A stretch of 6,899 nucleotides of DNA from a virus. Lineage: Duplodnaviria; Heunggongvirae; Uroviricota; Caudoviricetes. Position 1 is the first letter of the stretch. Every line of letters starts with the position of its first letter. The position numbers were made by a program, and so were the translations under genes. This document shows positions 1 through 6,199 of the stretch, piece after piece. The notes under the pieces were generated by a model that did no database searches, was not told where the DNA came from, and saw only the letters and a program-made list of their open reading frames with translations. The stretch is taken from IMG/VR virus record IMGVR_UViG_2537561710_000007; one strand, written 5' to 3'.

Positions 1-121
1 CCCAGGCTGAGAAATTTCCTGAACCTTTCTGATCAAGAGCGATGTTAATTTGTTCAATCATTTGGTTAGGAAAGCGGATGTTGCGGGTTGTTGTTCTGCG
101 GGTTCTGTTCTTCGTTGACAT
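1..121 (-). CDS. Partial small prophage protein, YlcI/YnfO-like (DUF3950 family); N-terminal 40 codons only, C-terminus lies beyond the left window edge
   Basis: Minus-strand ATG is the reverse complement of 119-121. Translation MSTKNRTRRTTTRNIRFPNQMIEQINIALDQKGSGNFSAW stays open to position 1. From memory it closely resembles E. coli prophage proteins YlcI/YnfO, which sit next to the terminase small-subunit homologs of cryptic lambdoid prophages. Not in the ORF track because it is truncated. No strong SD (upstream on minus strand: acggggcaacctca). Confidence 0.55.
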   Translation of the reverse strand, partial: MSTKNRTRRTTTRNIRFPNQMIEQINIALDQKGSGNFSAW

Positions 122-284
122 GAGGTTGCCCCGTATTCAGTGTCGCTGATTTGTATTGTCTGAAGTTGTTTTTACGTTAAGTTGATGCAGATCAATTAAT
201 ACGATACCTGCGTCATAATTAATTATTTGACGTGGTTTGATGGCGTAGATGCACGTTGTGACATGTAGATGATAATTATTATCA

Positions 285-300
285 TTTTGCGGGTCCTTTC
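285..300. promoter_or_regulatory. cosQ: Putative cosQ-like element upstream of cosN (needed for packaging termination in lambda)
   Basis: Segment gcgggtcctttccggcgatccgacaggttacg (289-320) nearly matches the last ~30 bp of the lambda right end as I recall it. In lambda, cosQ is a short element a few tens of bp upstream of the nick site. Exact boundaries are not determinable from sequence alone. Confidence 0.35.
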
Positions 301-310
301 CGGCGATCCG

Positions 311-342
311 ACAGGTTACGGGGCGGCGACCTCGCGGGTTTT
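311..342. promoter_or_regulatory. cosN: cosN, the terminase nicking site; 12-nt cohesive-end sequence GGGCGGCGACCT at 321-332
   Basis: Directly seen: acaggttacg|GGGCGGCGACCT|cgcgggttttcgctatttatgaaaattttccgg. This matches the junction of the lambda right end (…gatccgacaggttacg) and left end (gggcggcgacctcgcgggttttcgctatttatgaaaattttccgg…). It lies about 185 bp upstream of the terminase small-subunit start, as in lambda. Confidence 0.85.
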
Positions 343-369
343 CGCTATTTATGAAAATTTTCCGGGATC

Positions 370-380
370 CATGTCCGGTT
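370..380 (-). repeat. R-site-like repeat copy 1 (inverted): catgtccggtt
   Basis: Exact reverse complement of the 11-mer AACCGGACATG found at 428-438 and 458-468. Confidence 0.6.
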
Positions 381-427
381 TCTCTTCAAGTTAACTATAT
401 GAAAAATATAAAAACAGGTCTTCTGTG

Positions 428-438
428 AACCGGACATG
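428..438 (+). repeat. R-site-like repeat copy 2: aaccggacatg
   Basis: Exact 11-mer match to copy 3; 30 bp centre to centre from copy 3. Confidence 0.6.
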
Positions 439-457
439 AACAAAAAACAGACATGTA

Positions 458-468
458 AACCGGACATG
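458..468 (+). repeat. R-site-like repeat copy 3: aaccggacatg, inside an imperfect 18-bp palindrome aaccggacatgaccggtt (458-475)
   Basis: Exact 11-mer match. The 18-mer differs from its own reverse complement at two positions. Confidence 0.6.
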
Positions 469-515
469 ACCGGTTTTGTTGTGATTGTGAGGTGAGAGTT
501 TTTGCGAGGTGAGGA

Positions 516-1025
516 GTGGCTACGCAGACTGAAGTTGCCAGGCATTTAAGTCTGACCGATCGCCAGCTTCGCAGATTGCAGAAATTGCCGGGTGCCCCGA
601 TATCGAATAAGCGAGGGCAACTGGATCTGGATGCCTGGCGCGATTTTTACATATCGTATCTGAGGAGAAGTAAAAACGATGTGCCTGATGGCGATAGCGA
701 AGACGACTATGAGGAGAAATTGCTTATTGCCAGATGGGAACTGACAGCAGAACAGGCTGTTACACAGCAGTTAAAAAATGAGGTGTCAAAAGGAAAACTG
801 ATTGACACCGGGTTCTGTATTTTTGCCCTCAGTAAGCTGGCAATGGCGTTATCCAGTACGCTTGATTCCATCCCTTTATCCATGCAGCGACAGTTTCCTG
901 ATTTAACACCGCGCCATCTTGACCATCTGAAAACCCTTATTGCTAAGGGGGCAAATCAGTGTGCGCGGGCAGGGGATAAATTACCGGATTTACTTGATGA
1001 ATATATCAGAGCAACAACTGAATAA
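516..1025 (+). CDS. nu1: Terminase small subunit, lambda Nu1-like (169 aa), GTG start
   Basis: ORF 516-1025. GTG at 516 is the first start codon after an in-frame stop, preceded by gaggtgaggag. The C-terminal half (TGFCIFALSKLAMALSSTLDSIPLSMQRQFPDLTPRHLDHL…LPDLLDEYI) aligns with the lambda Nu1 C-terminus (TAFCTFVLSRIAGEIASILDGLPLSVQRRFPELENRHVDFL…IPGLLSEYI). The N-terminus (EVARHLSLTDRQLRRL) looks like a helix-turn-helix but has low identity to lambda Nu1. It sits directly downstream of cos and overlaps the large-subunit start. Confidence 0.85.
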   Translation: MATQTEVARHLSLTDRQLRRLQKLPGAPISNKRGQLDLDAWRDFYISYLRRSKNDVPDGDSEDDYEEKLLIARWELTAEQAVTQQLKNEVSKGKLIDTGFCIFALSKLAMALSSTLDSIPLSMQRQFPDLTPRHLDHLKTLIAKGANQCARAGDKLPDLLDEYIRATTE

Positions 1026-2925
1026 TATGATGAGCGCTGTCACAACTGCATTACAGCCCCTGATAAGGGCATTGCCGGTGACGCCAGTTGAATGGGCTGA
1101 TCAAAATTATTATCTGCCTAAAGAATCTTCATATGGTGAGGGCGAATGGAAAACGCTGCCATTCCAGATCGCCATCATGAACAGTATGGGGAATGATCAG
1201 ATCCGCACTGTTAATCTGATTAAATCTGCCCGTGTTGGCTATACAAAGATGTTGCTGGGGGGGGGCGGGTATTTTATTGAGCATAAATCCCGAAACAGTC
1301 TGCTTTTTCAGCCCACGGATTCTGCCGCTGAAGATTTTATGAAGTCTCACGTGGAGGCGACGATTCGGAACGTGCCATGCCTGAAAGACCTTTCCCCATG
1401 GCTGGGTCGTAAACATCGTGACAATACTCTCACGCTGAAACGCTTTTCATCGGGCGTCGGTTTCTGGTGCCTGGGCGGCGCTGCCGCCAAAAACTACCGT
1501 GAAAAATCCGTTGACGTGGTCTGCTATGACGAACTTTCCTCGTTCGAGCCGGATGTCGAAAAAGAGGGCTCGCCAACCCTGCTGGGGGATAAGCGTATTG
1601 AGGGGTCGGTGTGGCCAAAATCCATTCGCGGCTCGACGCCTAAAATCAAAGGCACCTGCCAGATCGAAAAAGCCGCTAACGAGTCGGCGCATTTTATGCG
1701 TTTTTATGTGCCCTGCCCGCACTGTGGGGAGGCGCAGTATCTGAAATTTGGCGATGAGTCCACGCCTTTTGGGCTTAAATGGGAGAAGGACAGCCCTGAA
1801 AGTGTTTTCTACCTCTGTGAACATCATGGCTGCGTGATCCATCAGTCTGAACTGGACCAGAGCAACGGGCGGTGGATCTGTGAAAACACGGGCATGTGGA
1901 CCCGTGACGGTCTGACGTTTTTCAGCGCCCGGGGTGATGAAATTCCGCCGCCGCGCTCCATCATGTTCCATATCTGGACGGCGTACAGTCCGTTCACCAC
2001 CTGGGTACAGATTGTCTATGACTGGCTGGATGCACTGAAAGATCCCAACGGCCTGAAAACCTTTGTGAACACCACGCTGGGCGAGACCTGGGAAGAGGCC
2101 GTGGGCGAAAAACTCGATCACCAGGTACTGATGGATAAGGTGGTGCGTTACACGGCGGCGGTGCCTGCCCGGGTGGTTTATCTGACGGCGGGCATTGACT
2201 CGCAGCGAAACCGTTTTGAGATGTATGTCTGGGGATGGGCTCCGGGAGAGGAAGCCTTTCTGGTGGATAAAATCATCATTATGGGGCGTCCTGATGAGGA
2301 AGAGACGCTGTTACGTGTGGATGCGGCGATCAACAAAAAATACCGCCATGCGGATGGCACCGAAATGACTATTTCCCGTGTCTGCTGGGACACCGGGGGG
2401 ATCGATGGTGAAATTGTTTATCAGAGATCAAAAAAACACGGTGTTTTCCGGGTGCTGCCGGTAAAAGGCGCATCTGTCTATGGCAAGCCGGTGATCACCA
2501 TGCCAAAAACCCGCAATCAGCGGGGCGTGTATCTGTGTGAAGTGGGAACGGACACCGCAAAAGAAATTCTCTATGCCCGTATGAAAGCCGATCCCTCGCC
2601 TGCGGATGAAGCCACGTCGTATGCCATCCGTTTTCCTGATGATCCGGAGATTTTTTCGCAGACAGAGGCGCAGCAACTGGTGGCGGAAGAGCTGGTGGAG
2701 AAGTGGGAAAAAGGAAAGATGCGTCTGCTGTGGGATAACAAAAAGCGGCGTAACGAAGCGCTGGACTGCCTGGTGTATGCCTACGCGGCATTACGTGTGT
2801 CCGTGCAACGCTGGCAGCTTGATCTGGCTGTACTGGCAAAATCCCGGGAAGAAGAGACGACCCGGCCAACCCTGAAAGAACTGGCAGCGAAGCTGTCCGG
2901 AGGAGTGAATGGTTACAGTCGCTGA
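997..2925 (+). CDS. A: Terminase large subunit, lambda gpA-like (642 aa): packaging ATPase and cos endonuclease
   Basis: ATG at 997 gives MNISEQQLNN…, matching the lambda gpA N-terminus (MNISNSQVNRL…). Homology runs the full length (VEWADxNYYLPKES, KSARVGYT Walker-A-like at residues 76-83, VVCYDELSSF Walker-B-like, GSPTLLGDKRIEGSVWPKSIRGSTPK, CPHCGE…YLCEH, WTAYSPFTTWVQIV, FVNTTLGETWE, TAGIDSQ, ICWDTGGID, KKRRNEALDC). The ORF track extends upstream to 940, but that extension has no counterpart in gpA. It overlaps the Nu1 end by 29 nt. Confidence 0.93.
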   Translation: MNISEQQLNNMMSAVTTALQPLIRALPVTPVEWADQNYYLPKESSYGEGEWKTLPFQIAIMNSMGNDQIRTVNLIKSARVGYTKMLLGGGGYFIEHKSRNSLLFQPTDSAAEDFMKSHVEATIRNVPCLKDLSPWLGRKHRDNTLTLKRFSSGVGFWCLGGAAAKNYREKSVDVVCYDELSSFEPDVEKEGSPTLLGDKRIEGSVWPKSIRGSTPKIKGTCQIEKAANESAHFMRFYVPCPHCGEAQYLKFGDESTPFGLKWEKDSPESVFYLCEHHGCVIHQSELDQSNGRWICENTGMWTRDGLTFFSARGDEIPPPRSIMFHIWTAYSPFTTWVQIVYDWLDALKDPNGLKTFVNTTLGETWEEAVGEKLDHQVLMDKVVRYTAAVPARVVYLTAGIDSQRNRFEMYVWGWAPGEEAFLVDKIIIMGRPDEEETLLRVDAAINKKYRHADGTEMTISRVCWDTGGIDGEIVYQRSKKHGVFRVLPVKGASVYGKPVITMPKTRNQRGVYLCEVGTDTAKEILYARMKADPSPADEATSYAIRFPDDPEIFSQTEAQQLVAEELVEKWEKGKMRLLWDNKKRRNEALDCLVYAYAALRVSVQRWQLDLAVLAKSREEETTRPTLKELAAKLSGGVNGYSR

Positions 2926-3115
2926 ACTGCAGGCGCTGCGTCAGGCGCGCCTTGATTTATTAACCGGTAAACGGGTGGTGTCTGTCCAGAAAGATGGTCG
3001 CAGAATTGAATATACGGCGGCTTCTCTGGATGAGCTTAACCGGGCGATCAATGATGCGGAGTCGGTACTGGGGACAACCCGGCGTCGCCGTCGTCCGCTG
3101 GGAGTGAGGTTATGA
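2909..3115 (+). CDS. W: Head-tail joining / head completion protein, lambda gpW-like (68 aa)
   Basis: ATG at 2909 with aggag at 2901-2905. Translation MVTVAELQALRQARLDLLTGKRVVSVQKDGRRIEYTAASLDEL… aligns with lambda gpW (…[24 protein letters not shown]…). Its start overlaps the terminase stop (2923-2925) and its stop overlaps the portal start. Confidence 0.9.
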   Translation: MVTVAELQALRQARLDLLTGKRVVSVQKDGRRIEYTAASLDELNRAINDAESVLGTTRRRRRPLGVRL

Positions 3116-4704
3116 AACGAACGCCTGTCCTGATTGATGTGAACGGCGTTCCGCTTCGTGAGAGTCTCAGCTACAACGGGGGCGGTGCAGGATTTGGCGG
3201 GCAAATGGCGGAGTGGTTGCCACCGGCGCAGAGTGCCGATGCGGCCCTGCTGCCCGCGTTGCGTCTGGGGAATGCCCGGGCAGATGATCTGGTGCGCAAT
3301 AACGGAATAGCGGCCAATGCGGTGGCACTGCATAAGGATCACATTGTCGGGCATATGTTTCTTATCAGCTACCGTCCGAACTGGCGCTGGCTGGGGATGC
3401 GGGAGACCGCAGCAAAAAGCTTTGTCGATGAGGTGGAGGCGGCCTGGTCGGAATACGCCGAAGGGATGTCTGGCGAGATCGACGTGGAAGGAAAACGCAC
3501 GTTCACGGAATTTATCCGTGAAGGTGTGGGCGTTCATGCGTTTAACGGCGAAATCTTTGTGCAGCCGGTCTGGGATACGGAAACCACGCAGTTATTCCGT
3601 ACGCGTTTTAAAGCCGTGAGTCCGAAACGGGTGGACACGCCAGGACACGGTATGGGGAACCGTTTTCTGCGGGCCGGGGTGGAGGTCGATCGATATGGCC
3701 GTGCCGTTGCGTACCATATCTGTGAGGATGATTTTCCTCGCTCCGGGAGTGGACGATGGGAACGGATCCCGCGTGAACTTCCCACCGGGCGTCCGGCCAT
3801 GCTGCATATTTTCGAGCCGGTGGAGGACGGGCAGACCCGTGGGGCCAACCAGTTTTACAGCGTCATGGAACGGCTGAAGATGCTCGATTCCCTGCAGGCA
3901 ACACAGCTTCAGTCGGCCATTGTGAAAGCCATGTATGCAGCGACGATTGAAAGTGACCTTGATACCGAAAAGGCCTTTGAATATATCGCCGGTGCGCCGC
4001 AGGGGCAGAAGGATAATCCGCTTATTAATATTCTGGAGAAGTTCTCCAGCTGGTATGACACGAATAACGTGACGCTGGGTGGTGTCAAAATTCCGCACCT
4101 TTTCCCCGGGGATGATCTGAAACTACAGACTGCGCAGGATTCAGACAATGGATTTTCGGCGCTTGAACAGGCGCTGCTGCGGTATATCGCCGCCGGTCTT
4201 GGCGTTTCCTACGAACAGTTGTCCCGTGATTACTCGAAGGTCAGTTATTCAAGTGCCAGGGCCTCTGCCAATGAGTCGTGGCGCTATTTTATGGGGCGGC
4301 GAAAATTTATTGCGGCCCGGCTGGCCACGCAGATGTTTTCCTACTGGCTGGAAGAGGCACTTCTTCGGGGGATTATCCGTCCGCCACGGGCGCGTTTTGA
4401 TTTTTATCAGGCGCGATCAGCCTGGTCACGGGCAGAGTGGATTGGTGCCGGAAGAATGGCCATTGACGGGCTCAAGGAGGTTCAGGAATCGGTGATGCGC
4501 ATTGAGGCCGGACTGAGCACGTATGAGAAAGAGCCGGCGCTGATGGGCGAGGATTATCAGGACATTTTCCGCCAGCAGGTCAGGGAATCTGCAGAGCGGC
4601 AAAAAGCCGGACTCTCACGTCCGGTGTGGATAGCGCAGGCGTATCAGCAGCAGATAGCGGAGAGTCGCAGGCCGGAAGAGGAGACAACACCCCGTGAGAC
4701 GTAA
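3112..4704 (+). CDS. B: Portal protein, lambda gpB-like (530 aa)
   Basis: ATG at 3112 overlaps the W stop as ATGA (3112-3115). Translation starts MKRTPVLIDVNGVPLRESLSYNGGGAGFGG…, which matches lambda gpB very closely over most of its length as far as I recall. Length is similar (lambda 533 aa) and gene order is conserved. Confidence 0.93.
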   Translation: MKRTPVLIDVNGVPLRESLSYNGGGAGFGGQMAEWLPPAQSADAALLPALRLGNARADDLVRNNGIAANAVALHKDHIVGHMFLISYRPNWRWLGMRETAAKSFVDEVEAAWSEYAEGMSGEIDVEGKRTFTEFIREGVGVHAFNGEIFVQPVWDTETTQLFRTRFKAVSPKRVDTPGHGMGNRFLRAGVEVDRYGRAVAYHICEDDFPRSGSGRWERIPRELPTGRPAMLHIFEPVEDGQTRGANQFYSVMERLKMLDSLQATQLQSAIVKAMYAATIESDLDTEKAFEYIAGAPQGQKDNPLINILEKFSSWYDTNNVTLGGVKIPHLFPGDDLKLQTAQDSDNGFSALEQALLRYIAAGLGVSYEQLSRDYSKVSYSSARASANESWRYFMGRRKFIAARLATQMFSYWLEEALLRGIIRPPRARFDFYQARSAWSRAEWIGAGRMAIDGLKEVQESVMRIEAGLSTYEKEPALMGEDYQDIFRQQVRESAERQKAGLSRPVWIAQAYQQQIAESRRPEEETTPRET

Positions 4705-6199
4705 TCTTTCACACATTATTGCCGCAGCATTCAATGAACCGCTGCTTCTGGAGCCCGCCTATGCGCGGGTTTTCTTTTGCGCGCTCGGGCGCGAGATGGG
4801 GGCAGCAAGTCTTTCGGTACCACAGCAGCAGGTACAGCTTGATGCTCCCGGAATGCTGGCTGAAACGGACGAGTACATGGCCGGAGGTAAACGACCGGCC
4901 CGTGTTTACCGGGTGGTGAACGGTATTGCTGTACTGCCGGTGACCGGCACGCTGGTGCACCGGCTGGGGGGTATGCGGCCATTTTCCGGAATGACAGGCT
5001 ATGACGGCATTGTCGCCTGTCTTCAGCAGGCAATGGCGGATAGCCAGGTGCGGGGCGTACTGCTGGACATTGACAGTCCGGGCGGGCAGGCCGCCGGCGC
5101 GTTTGACTGCGCTGACATGATTTACCGCCTCCGTCAGCAGAAGCCGGTCTGGGCACTGTGCAATGACACGGCCTGTTCTGCAGCCATGCTGCTGGCGTCG
5201 GCCTGCTCCCGACGGCTGGTTACCCAGACATCCCGTATCGGCTCCATTGGCGTGATGATGAGCCATGTCAGCTATGCCGGTCATCTGGCGCAGGCCGGTG
5301 TGGATATCACGCTGATTTACTCAGGGGCGCACAAGGTGGATGGCAATCAGTTTGAAGCCTTACCGGCAGAGGTTCGCCAGAACATGCAGCAGCGCATTGA
5401 TGCGGCGCGCCGGATGTTTGCCGAAAAAGTGGCCATGTTTACCGGTCTGTCTGTTGATGCCGTCACGGGAACAGAGGCCGCCGTTTTTGAAGGTCAGTCC
5501 GGCATTGATGCCGGGCTGGCGGATGAATTAGTCAATGCGTCGGATGCCATCAGTGTGATGGCCACGGCGCTGAACAGTAATGTCAGAGGAGGCACTATGC
5601 CGCAATTAACTGCAACGGAAGCCGCCGCGCAGGAGAACCAGCGAGTGATGGGGATCCTGACATGCCAGGAAGCGAAAGGACGTGAACAGCTTGCCACGAT
5701 GCTGGCAGGACAACAGGGCATGAGCGTTGAACAGGCCCGGGCGATTCTGGCCGCGGCGGCACCGCAGCAGCCGGTGGCATCCACGCAGAGTGAAGCCGAT
5801 CGCATTATGGCGTGTGAAGAAGCGAACGGTCGTGAACAACTGGCGGCAACGCTGGCGGCGATGCCGGAGATGACGGTGGAAAAAGCCCGCCCGATCCTGG
5901 CTGCTTCACCGCAGGCGGATGCCGGACCCTCACTCCGTGATCAGATCATGGCACTGGATGAGGCAAAAGGGGCTGAGGCGCAGGCTGAACAGCTGGCTGC
6001 CTGCCCGGGAATGACTGTGGAGAGCGCCCGGGCTGTGCTGGCTGCGGGATCAGGTAAGGCAGAACCGGTCTCTGCATCCACAACCGCCCTGTTTGAACGC
6101 ATCATGGCGAACCATTCACCGGCTGCGGTACAGGGTGGCGTGCCACAGACGTCAGCAGACGGTGATGCGGACGTGAAAATGCTCATGGCCATGCCATGA
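4694..6199 (+). CDS. C: Head maturation protease / scaffold fusion, lambda gpC-like (S49, ClpP-like serine peptidase domain plus C-terminal scaffold domain), 501 aa, GTG start
   Basis: N-terminal two thirds align with lambda gpC (AFNEPLLLEPAYARVFFCAL, NGIAVLPVTGTLV, SGMTGYDGI, GVLLDIDSPGG, GAFDCAD, KPVWALCND, LLASACSRRLVTQTSRIGSIGVMM, ITLIYSGAHKVDGN, TEAAVFEGQSGIDAGLADELVN). GTG at 4694 overlaps the portal end by 11 nt. The start codon choice is less certain than the gene call. Confidence 0.88.
   Translation: MRRNLSHIIAAAFNEPLLLEPAYARVFFCALGREMGAASLSVPQQQVQLDAPGMLAETDEYMAGGKRPARVYRVVNGIAVLPVTGTLVHRLGGMRPFSGMTGYDGIVACLQQAMADSQVRGVLLDIDSPGGQAAGAFDCADMIYRLRQQKPVWALCNDTACSAAMLLASACSRRLVTQTSRIGSIGVMMSHVSYAGHLAQAGVDITLIYSGAHKVDGNQFEALPAEVRQNMQQRIDAARRMFAEKVAMFTGLSVDAVTGTEAAVFEGQSGIDAGLADELVNASDAISVMATALNSNVRGGTMPQLTATEAAAQENQRVMGILTCQEAKGREQLATMLAGQQGMSVEQARAILAAAAPQQPVASTQSEADRIMACEEANGREQLAATLAAMPEMTVEKARPILAASPQADAGPSLRDQIMALDEAKGAEAQAEQLAACPGMTVESARAVLAAGSGKAEPVSASTTALFERIMANHSPAAVQGGVPQTSADGDADVKMLMAMP
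5597..6199 (+). CDS. nu3: Nested Nu3-like scaffolding protein (200 aa) from an internal in-frame start within the gpC-like gene
   Basis: ATG at 5597 is preceded by a strong SD (agaggagg at 5584-5591, about 5-nt spacing), in frame with the gpC-like ORF. In lambda, Nu3 is likewise encoded in the C frame from an internal start. The product begins MPQLTATEAAAQENQRVMGILTCQEAKGREQ…, comparable to the lambda Nu3 segment …NSRIMGILNCEEAHGREEQ…. Confidence 0.6.
   Translation: MPQLTATEAAAQENQRVMGILTCQEAKGREQLATMLAGQQGMSVEQARAILAAAAPQQPVASTQSEADRIMACEEANGREQLAATLAAMPEMTVEKARPILAASPQADAGPSLRDQIMALDEAKGAEAQAEQLAACPGMTVESARAVLAAGSGKAEPVSASTTALFERIMANHSPAAVQGGVPQTSADGDADVKMLMAMP

Follow-up and report, generated by a model that had tools for sequence, protein, structure and literature searches.

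We analysed a 6,899-nt stretch of the IMG/VR virus record IMGVR_UViG_2537561710_000007 (class Caudoviricetes), hereafter called the window, which contains a cos site of the lambda family. The site lies between a lambda-like right-end module and a series of genes that begins with those for the small (TerS) and large (TerL) terminase subunits and continues with phage-21-type head genes (Table 1). A sequence-only reading of this DNA had placed a lambda-type cos site at 283-365 and taken it for the physical ends of the virion genome, with the right end of the phage genome to its left and the left end to its right.

The 12-nt cohesive-end sequence GGGCGGCGACCT, around which that reading was built, was found exactly once in the whole window, at 321-332 on the + strand and without mismatches; at up to one mismatch, 0.04 occurrences per window are expected by chance. 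The region 283-365 was 96.4% identical to lambda and 100% identical to 12 lambdoid phage records (2H10, Turner, PhiR11_1 and others; E = 4e-35). In phage DE3, the matching segment falls under an annotated 'cos site' feature. The window was further aligned with the joined genome ends of lambda (NC_001416), phage 21 (OL657228) and PhiR12_1. Positions 321-365 corresponded exactly to lambda bp 1-45, and a single position differed from lambda in the 30 bp left of 321. None of the three differences from lambda within 283-365 falls in the cosQ heptamer, and all are located to the left of cosN. The flanks of cosN were those of lambda and PhiR12_1, and the bases just right of the cohesive end differed from phage 21 at a few positions. 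In sequence and spacing, cosQ was the same as the annotated cosQ of phage 21 (42902-42908 of the 42931-bp genome); the phage 21 and lambda records both start at the cohesive-end 12-mer. Clearly, the match to the lambda cos is not due to chance, and the observation was confirmed. Every feature of a lambda-family cos (cosQ-cosN-cosB) that can be tested on sequence was present, and by its sequence 283-365 belongs to a genuine lambda-family cos of an E. coli O157:H7-type prophage. Because the cohesive end is identical to those of lambda and phage 21, nicks are expected, as read across from lambda, at 320/321 (top strand) and 332/333 (bottom strand).

The extent of the lambda-like sequence was uneven on the two sides. 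It had been put at about 45 bp in each direction, which was exact on the right and an understatement on the left, where similarity reached position 1: over 1-365, identity was 95.9% to lambda and up to 98.4% to its relatives. On the right, identity to lambda ended abruptly at 365, and megablast matches to lambda and about 30 relatives all stopped at this query position. The orientation stood as proposed, with the right-end module left of 320/321 and the terminase, portal and head genes to the right.

Beyond 365, the 11-mer CATGTCCGGTT was present in three exact copies and one copy with a single mismatch, all inside 370-475 and none elsewhere in the window. The chance expectation for such copies was 0.2, and none of 200 shuffled sequences gave four matches. 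The mismatched copy, CATGACCGGTT, is located at 465-475 on the + strand and forms the direct part of R1. R3, the I1-like site for integration host factor (IHF) and R2 start at left-end bp 50, 72 and 108, compared with 50, 74 and 107 in the annotation of phage 21 (R3, bp 50-65; R2, bp 107-122). Because these coordinates agree with those of phage 21, the architecture is that of a classical complex cosB almost to the base pair; what differs is the sequence of the repeats. The IHF-like site TAACTATATGAAA has two mismatches to the consensus YAANNNNTTGATW. A scan of the whole window with this consensus gave 38 matches where 43 were expected, and the consensus alone is thus uninformative. When 366-520 was searched in 50,697 phage records, there were five matches (91.6%), all of them PhiR12 phages. 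A minus-strand open reading frame at 345-545 (66 aa) was rejected as a gene: it had no Pfam or PHROG match and overlaps the conserved cosB sites. In several RefSeq genomes and in PhiR12_1 a 'hypothetical protein' is annotated over it, probably a spurious call across a protein-binding region.

The GTG start of the TerS gene at 516 is preceded by GAGGTGAGGA. PHROG and RefSeq both assigned the product as a terminase small subunit, whereas NCBIfam gave no family for either the small or the large subunit. The Pfam match to Phage_Nu1 was limited to residues 49-150, so the N-terminal DNA-binding part of TerS is not recognisably Nu1-like. Phage_Nu1, GpA_ATPase and GpA_nuclease matches lie directly downstream of cos, and neither terminase reading frame is interrupted, each giving full domain matches. 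In an alignment with the proteins of lambda, 21 and N15, the helix-turn-helix of TerS reads TQTEVARHLSLTDRQLRRLQK (KKQLADIFGASIRTIQNWQE in lambda) and the recognition helix, at about residues 16-23, reads RQLRRLQK (RTIQNWQE in lambda); the N-terminal domain was unlike its counterparts in all three phages. An AlphaFold model built with 22 homologues placed helices at residues 4-10, 15-22 and 38-55, the last two being separated by a loop or wing (predicted local distance difference test score, about 82-84). Fold searches returned MerR-type winged-helix proteins, excisionases and the lambda TerS/RppC complex (6hn7), none of them significant or specific, and comparison of TerS with the PDB by sequence gave chance matches only. 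A winged helix-turn-helix fold of the N-terminal domain is plausible from the model.

Table 1. Features of the 6,899-nt window
Feature	Position	Strand	Remarks
YlcI/YnfO-family gene, 5' part	window up to 121	-	corresponds to the coding sequence at L001 19897-20121
Lambda-like right-end module	1-320	+	includes the 5' part of the YlcI/YnfO-family gene
cosQ heptamer GGGTCCT	291-297	+	23 bp ahead of the expected top-strand nick
cosN	316-337	not assigned	12-nt cohesive end at 321-332
cosN-to-cosB spacer	333-365	+	lambda bp 13-45; includes TATGAAAATTTTCCG
cosB R3, CATGTCCGGTT	370-380	+	left-end bp 50-60
I1-like IHF site, TAACTATATGAAA	392-404	+	left-end bp 72-84; followed by an A/T-rich tract
cosB R2, CATGTCCGGTT	428-438	-	left-end bp 108-118; inverted relative to R3
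cosB R1	458-475	both	exact inverted copy at 458-468 (-) and overlapping direct copy at 465-475 (+); bp 138-155
Small terminase, TerS	516-1025	+	169 aa; GTG start; Pfam, PHROG, RefSeq
Large terminase, TerL	997-2925	+	642 aa; gpA ATPase and nuclease domains
gpW-like head gene	2909-3115	+	phage-21-type
Portal	3112-4704	+	phage-21-type
S49 protease/scaffold	4694-6199	+	phage-21-type
Decoration protein	6236-6583	+	phage-21-type
Truncated major capsid gene	6641-6829	+	first 63 codons
Host btuC fragment	6830-6899	+	in frame with the capsid gene; 100% identical to O157 btuC

With lambda, the window shares the cosQ heptamer and its spacing, the 12-nt cohesive end, cosN, bp 13-45, the layout and distances of cosB, and the gene order cos-terS-terL-W-portal-protease-D-E. 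Since lambda and the window agree completely or almost completely in cosQ, cosN and the following 33 bp, gpNu1 and gpA of lambda might recognise and cut the site as their own, and the action of N15 terminase on lambda DNA offers a precedent for such cross-packaging (PMC4669245). We nevertheless consider a cos of lambda specificity very unlikely. Identity to lambda stops at 365, where cosB begins, and no lambda R sequence (CGTTTCC...) is present in the window cosB, in which the repeat is CATGTCCGGTT and the third exact copy is inverted relative to lambda R1. The N-terminal domain of TerS could not be aligned by Pfam to that of lambda, and the recognition helices differ as described above; neither the R consensus nor the gpNu1 helix that mark lambda packaging specificity was found. 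This module is the only difference between lambda and 21, and their discrimination exceeds 1000-fold (PMC4669245); a distinct specificity is thus likely for the module in the window. The term 'lambda-type' therefore applies to the family, with cosQ, cosN and 33 bp being those of lambda, and does not extend to specificity, because cosB (366-475) and TerS differ from those of lambda and likewise from those of 21 and N15.

Phage 21 is identical to the window in cosQ and the 12-nt cohesive end, nearly identical in the coordinates of R3, I1 and R2, and mostly 97-100% identical in the head genes from about 1921. Its R core, TC(A/G)TGTCGG, is the closest to that of the window and resembles CATGTCCGG, but the core in the window has one extra C and a shifted register. 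The recognition helix of TerS is unrelated to that of 21 (PRTIERWQS), and no nucleotide homology with 21 was found in cosB, terS or the 5' end of terL, that is, before 1079. The features of phage 21 packaging specificity (R core and gp1 helix) were thus absent from the window. N15 and Monarch belong to the same cos-site family and have a TerS of the same length, but their R sequences are GGTTGTTGTTT and N15 itself has a simple cosB with R3 only; neither these R sites nor the VQAFDKWG helix of N15/Monarch specificity was found in the window.

In E. coli phage-inducible chromosomal islands (PICIs), too, lambda-like cosQ and cosN sequences are followed by a cosB that is not lambda's; these satellites combine the cosQ and cosN of a helper with a divergent cosB read by Rpp. 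However, PICI cosBs are reported to be followed by rpp and to have no repeated R sequences (PMC9026076), whereas the window has three repeats and an IHF-like site. No rpp is present next to its cos; the next gene encodes a full-length TerS with the Nu1 C-terminal domain, followed by the genes for TerL, portal, protease and decoration protein, and PICIs do not have such a complete set of terminase and head genes. A satellite origin of the site is therefore hardly credible.

Three independent lines of evidence, namely conservation, domain swaps and covariation, support the CATGTCCGGTT repeats as putative terminase-binding sites. For conservation, we collected 264 IMG/VR contigs encoding TerS, which gave 44 distinct upstream sequences. 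cosQ and R3 were invariant in all 44 variants, cosN had singleton changes only, I1 was almost invariant, and R1 was kept in most variants. The spacers at 298-315 and 439-457, by comparison, were variable in 63-72% of their columns (72% for 298-315). In one variant (L088, IMG/VR; about 428-457), exactly the 30 bp between the registers of R2 and R1 were gone, as expected if the two direct copies of AACCGGACATG had recombined by unequal crossing-over. A deletion of this kind reportedly has been proposed as the route to the simple cosB of N15.

Domain swaps were found as natural chimeras in E. albertii NBRC 107761 (L010) and Escherichia sp. MOD1-EC7003 (L011; both about 1170-1930). Here, an N15/Monarch-type TerS N-terminal domain (MAFLLNKSDMASSIGISVQAFDKWG) is fused to a C-terminal half of the window type, and cosB, which follows the same cosQ and cosN, contains GGTTGTTGTTT repeats arranged R3-R2-R1 as in the window. 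L011 also has the right-end sequence of the window upstream of cos. The DNA-binding domain and the repeat type move together in natural chimeras. The cohesive end varies independently of repeat type across relatives: a Citrobacter relative has the N15-type cohesive end GGGCGGCGTCCG together with window-type R repeats.

For covariation, we used TerS homologues of 46-81% identity with their upstream DNA from Klebsiella, Salmonella, Citrobacter, Enterobacter, E. coli and metagenomes. A search with the TerS protein alignment gave 80 near-identical loci; divergent homologues were queried one at a time. In the 11 complex cosBs measured, R3 was at bp 49-51 and R2 at bp 106-109, with a spacing of 58 bp in ten and 57 bp in one. 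Nine of the 11 had an IHF-like site at bp 70-73, and in the remaining two, L281 and L095, it was located at bp 82. Relatives from Klebsiella, E. coli, Salmonella and Citrobacter had a site at the I1 position with at most one mismatch, and in Klebsiella and one E. coli lineage this site matched the consensus perfectly. More distant TerS relatives in IMG/VR and Logan contigs (L263-L265, L303 and L096) had a 'simple' cosB, with a single R3-type site, sometimes as a tandem TTCCGG TTCCGG, about 25 bp before the terminase start; like N15, they were without I1 or R2, and their cosN was unlike that of lambda.

Residue 20 of TerS covaried with one base of the repeat. Five domain classes with Arg at this residue all had xxTGTCCGGTT (G before TCCGGTT), and about 12 classes with Asp, Asn, Thr, Ser or Lys all had xxxTTCCGGTT (T before TCCGGTT), with no exceptions in either group; these class counts are uncorrected for shared ancestry. 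One of the Arg20 classes belongs to a distant clade in which the neighbouring members carry Asn, Thr or Ser, and the switch of residue and base occurred at least twice. Residue 20 aligns with Asn21 of lambda Nu1, which lies in the recognition helix (residues 17-24) of that protein (PMC9026076). Based on these comparisons, we propose that Arg at helix residue 20 may pair with G at bp 53 of the R site, and Asp, Asn, Thr, Ser or Lys with T.

The presence, placement, conservation and covariation of these parts were observed; for binding, bending and cutting, we infer a mechanism from what is established for lambda and 21 (PMC4669245; PMC9026076). TerS dimers would bind R3 and the inverted R2 through the N-terminal winged helix-turn-helix, a bend at the IHF-like site would bring R3 and R2 together, and R1 would be accessory. 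Docked TerS would anchor the large terminase on cosN, where the two nicks, 12 nt apart, would generate the 5' overhang GGGCGGCGACCT, and packaging would proceed rightward. At the end of the preceding genome, cosQ would act in termination. Together, the cosB repeats and the DNA-binding domain of TerS constitute a separate, co-inherited module, probably with a specificity distinct from those of lambda, 21 and N15.

The prophage to which the site belongs could be identified. Positions 1-6829 of the window were about 100% identical to a prophage of E. coli O157:H7 (EDL933, Xuzhou21, 86-24 and many other strains). The EDL933 copy differed at three positions (5, 11 and 17), spaced at 6-nt intervals inside the minus-strand YlcI/YnfO-family gene; other relatives differed at similar third-position-like sites. 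None of the IMG/VR loci compared with the window was identical to it. In EDL933, cos is preceded by lysis genes (holin, lysozyme and Rz-type) and the head genes are followed by tail genes. These are the flanks that the sequence-only reading had proposed to check, and they support a prophage, one of the contexts it had listed. The matching O157 prophage carries espJ and an EspF-repeat gene downstream; from this gene content, we take it to be the espJ/tccP prophage CP-933U, the Sp14 of strain Sakai.

The copy in the window is truncated. Its capsid gene is cut at 6829 and joined to an internal segment of btuC, with a 6-bp microhomology (GTGCTG) at 6824-6829 ahead of the 6829/6830 junction. In O157 strain 8368, 268 kb separate the prophage from btuC, which is encoded on the same strand and has pheT and ihfA immediately upstream. 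This interval contains essential genes, so a simple deletion between the prophage and btuC would remove them. The junction was not found in 5426 complete E. coli genomes, and a 36-nt pattern across it had no match in GTDB representatives, IMG/VR or JGI metagenomes; it may be a genuine rearrangement, or the contig may be chimeric or its end constructed. Judged from its genes, the window copy is defective and cannot form its own capsids, hence its own virions, because the capsid gene is cut and fused to btuC. The site would thus be usable only if a co-resident prophage with matching specificity provided terminase and heads in trans, and virion ends are a latent property here. The earlier description of the DNA right of cos as the left end of the phage genome accordingly holds for the terminase, portal and head genes as far as 6829 and not beyond. 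That of the site as the physical ends of the virion genome holds for the presence of a lambda-family cos, as a potential only, given the truncated capsid gene and an Sp14 DNA that was not found packaged (PMC2669165).

The same defects raise the question of whether the site is a decayed relic, a cos-like sequence of a dead prophage that no longer works. The truncation and the capsid-btuC fusion would fit this explanation, as would the state of the closest relative, CP-933U/Sp14, which is itself head-defective and whose DNA was not found packaged (PMC2669165); in CP-933U the capsid gene is joined to a tail gene, unlike the btuC joint of the window. However, cosQ, cosN, R3, I1, R2, R1 and the TerS protein are identical to those of the PhiR12 phages, which were deposited as complete phage genomes; a related Phi-R panel has been used as infectious phages (PMC13190303). 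Both terminase frames are intact with full domain matches, and the subsites have stayed invariant or nearly so in the 44 variants while the spacers drifted. A relic is therefore unlikely. Loss of the site was seen in other prophage remnants: in Shigella flexneri SFBU1023 (L008) and E. coli ECMA0423 (L009; both about 1050-1810), terS is interrupted near codon 68 by the apparent end of a transposase gene from an insertion sequence, and cos and the DNA-binding domain are removed.

Taken together, 291-475 is very probably the complete cosQ-cosN-cosB of a CP-933U/Sp14 (Sp4)-type prophage, with its own terminase downstream, a separate specificity module and a use restricted to trans. Several points weigh against this interpretation. 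Cutting at 320/321 is read across from lambda for the window element and the PhiR12 phages alike. The IHF-like site, with its two mismatches, is by itself not above chance. The third exact repeat (458-468) is oriented as R2, whereas R1 of lambda is oriented as R3; the lambda orientation is present only in the overlapping imperfect copy. N15 terminase packages lambda DNA despite different repeats (PMC4669245), so cross-recognition is possible. Finally, Sp14 DNA was not detected in particles from O157 Sakai (PMC2669165).

Downstream of the site, the window aligned to the phage 21 head genes from 1079 onward. A sharp mosaic joint with phage 21 at this position was considered and rejected, as identity climbed gradually over about 1120-1920: it was below 60% up to 1120, 70-95% over 1121-1920, and at the level given above thereafter, apart from a few 100-bp bins of 93-96%. 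The first 27 or so codons and the 5' third of terL (997-1920) had diverged from phage 21 (about 50% to 95%), and these first codons travel with the small terminase gene. The N-terminus of gpA binds TerS, which is consistent with this linkage. Overall, the window is a mosaic of three parts: the right end, which includes cosQ and cosN, is lambda-like; cosB, terS and the 5' part of terL make up a private module; and the head module is of the 21 type.

The cos site was already known, because the identical sequence of Sp4/Sp14 has been published. Asadulghani et al. (2009) aligned the 'putative cos' of Sp4 and Sp14 with that of lambda and marked cosQ, cosN and one 'IHF' site, which is the TATGAAAATTTTCCG element (PMC2669165, Fig. 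S8). Their alignment ends at the first bases of R3, and the cosB repeats were not described. The Sp14 TerS printed in the same figure is the 169-aa TerS of the window, allowing for machine-read character errors. Sp4 and Sp14 have identical cos and Nu1, and the Sp14 terminase was proposed to package the terminase-defective Sp4 (PMC2669165). The cos of Sp4/Sp14 (CP-933U in EDL933) is essentially the same sequence as that in the window. A literature search for cosB together with O157 found nothing relevant; papers on lambda-like specificity may mention this terminase group. The finding is thus real, correctly oriented, ordinary and, for the Sp4/Sp14 sequence, previously published; the added value is modest and consists of the description of the cosB repeats and the covariation of residue 20 with base 53.

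Of 5426 complete E. coli genomes, 1154 contained the cosB type of the window, which was present at 1815 places in total and in up to four copies per genome, with two or more copies in O157:H7. Among isolated phages it was rare, being found in the five PhiR12 records. The module formed by cosB and TerS suggests a packaging specificity that is uncharacterised but common. On balance, we lean towards the view that the CATGTCCGGTT cosB and the 'MATQxEVAxH' TerS domain represent a fourth, uncharacterised lambda-like specificity, governed by a one-residue/one-base rule and present in about one fifth of E. coli genomes.

For the prophage itself, the cos site mainly fixes the map: its orientation, the predicted start of the packaged genome at 321 and the phage-21-type head module to the right. 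In practical terms, the site is of interest for the prophages of O157:H7: the cos and TerS shared by Sp4 and Sp14 are the published explanation for packaging of a terminase-defective prophage. The covariation of residue 20 with base 53 bears on how packaging specificity is encoded and switched, and a fourth specificity, if true, could set which defective effector-carrying prophages are cross-packaged by which helpers.
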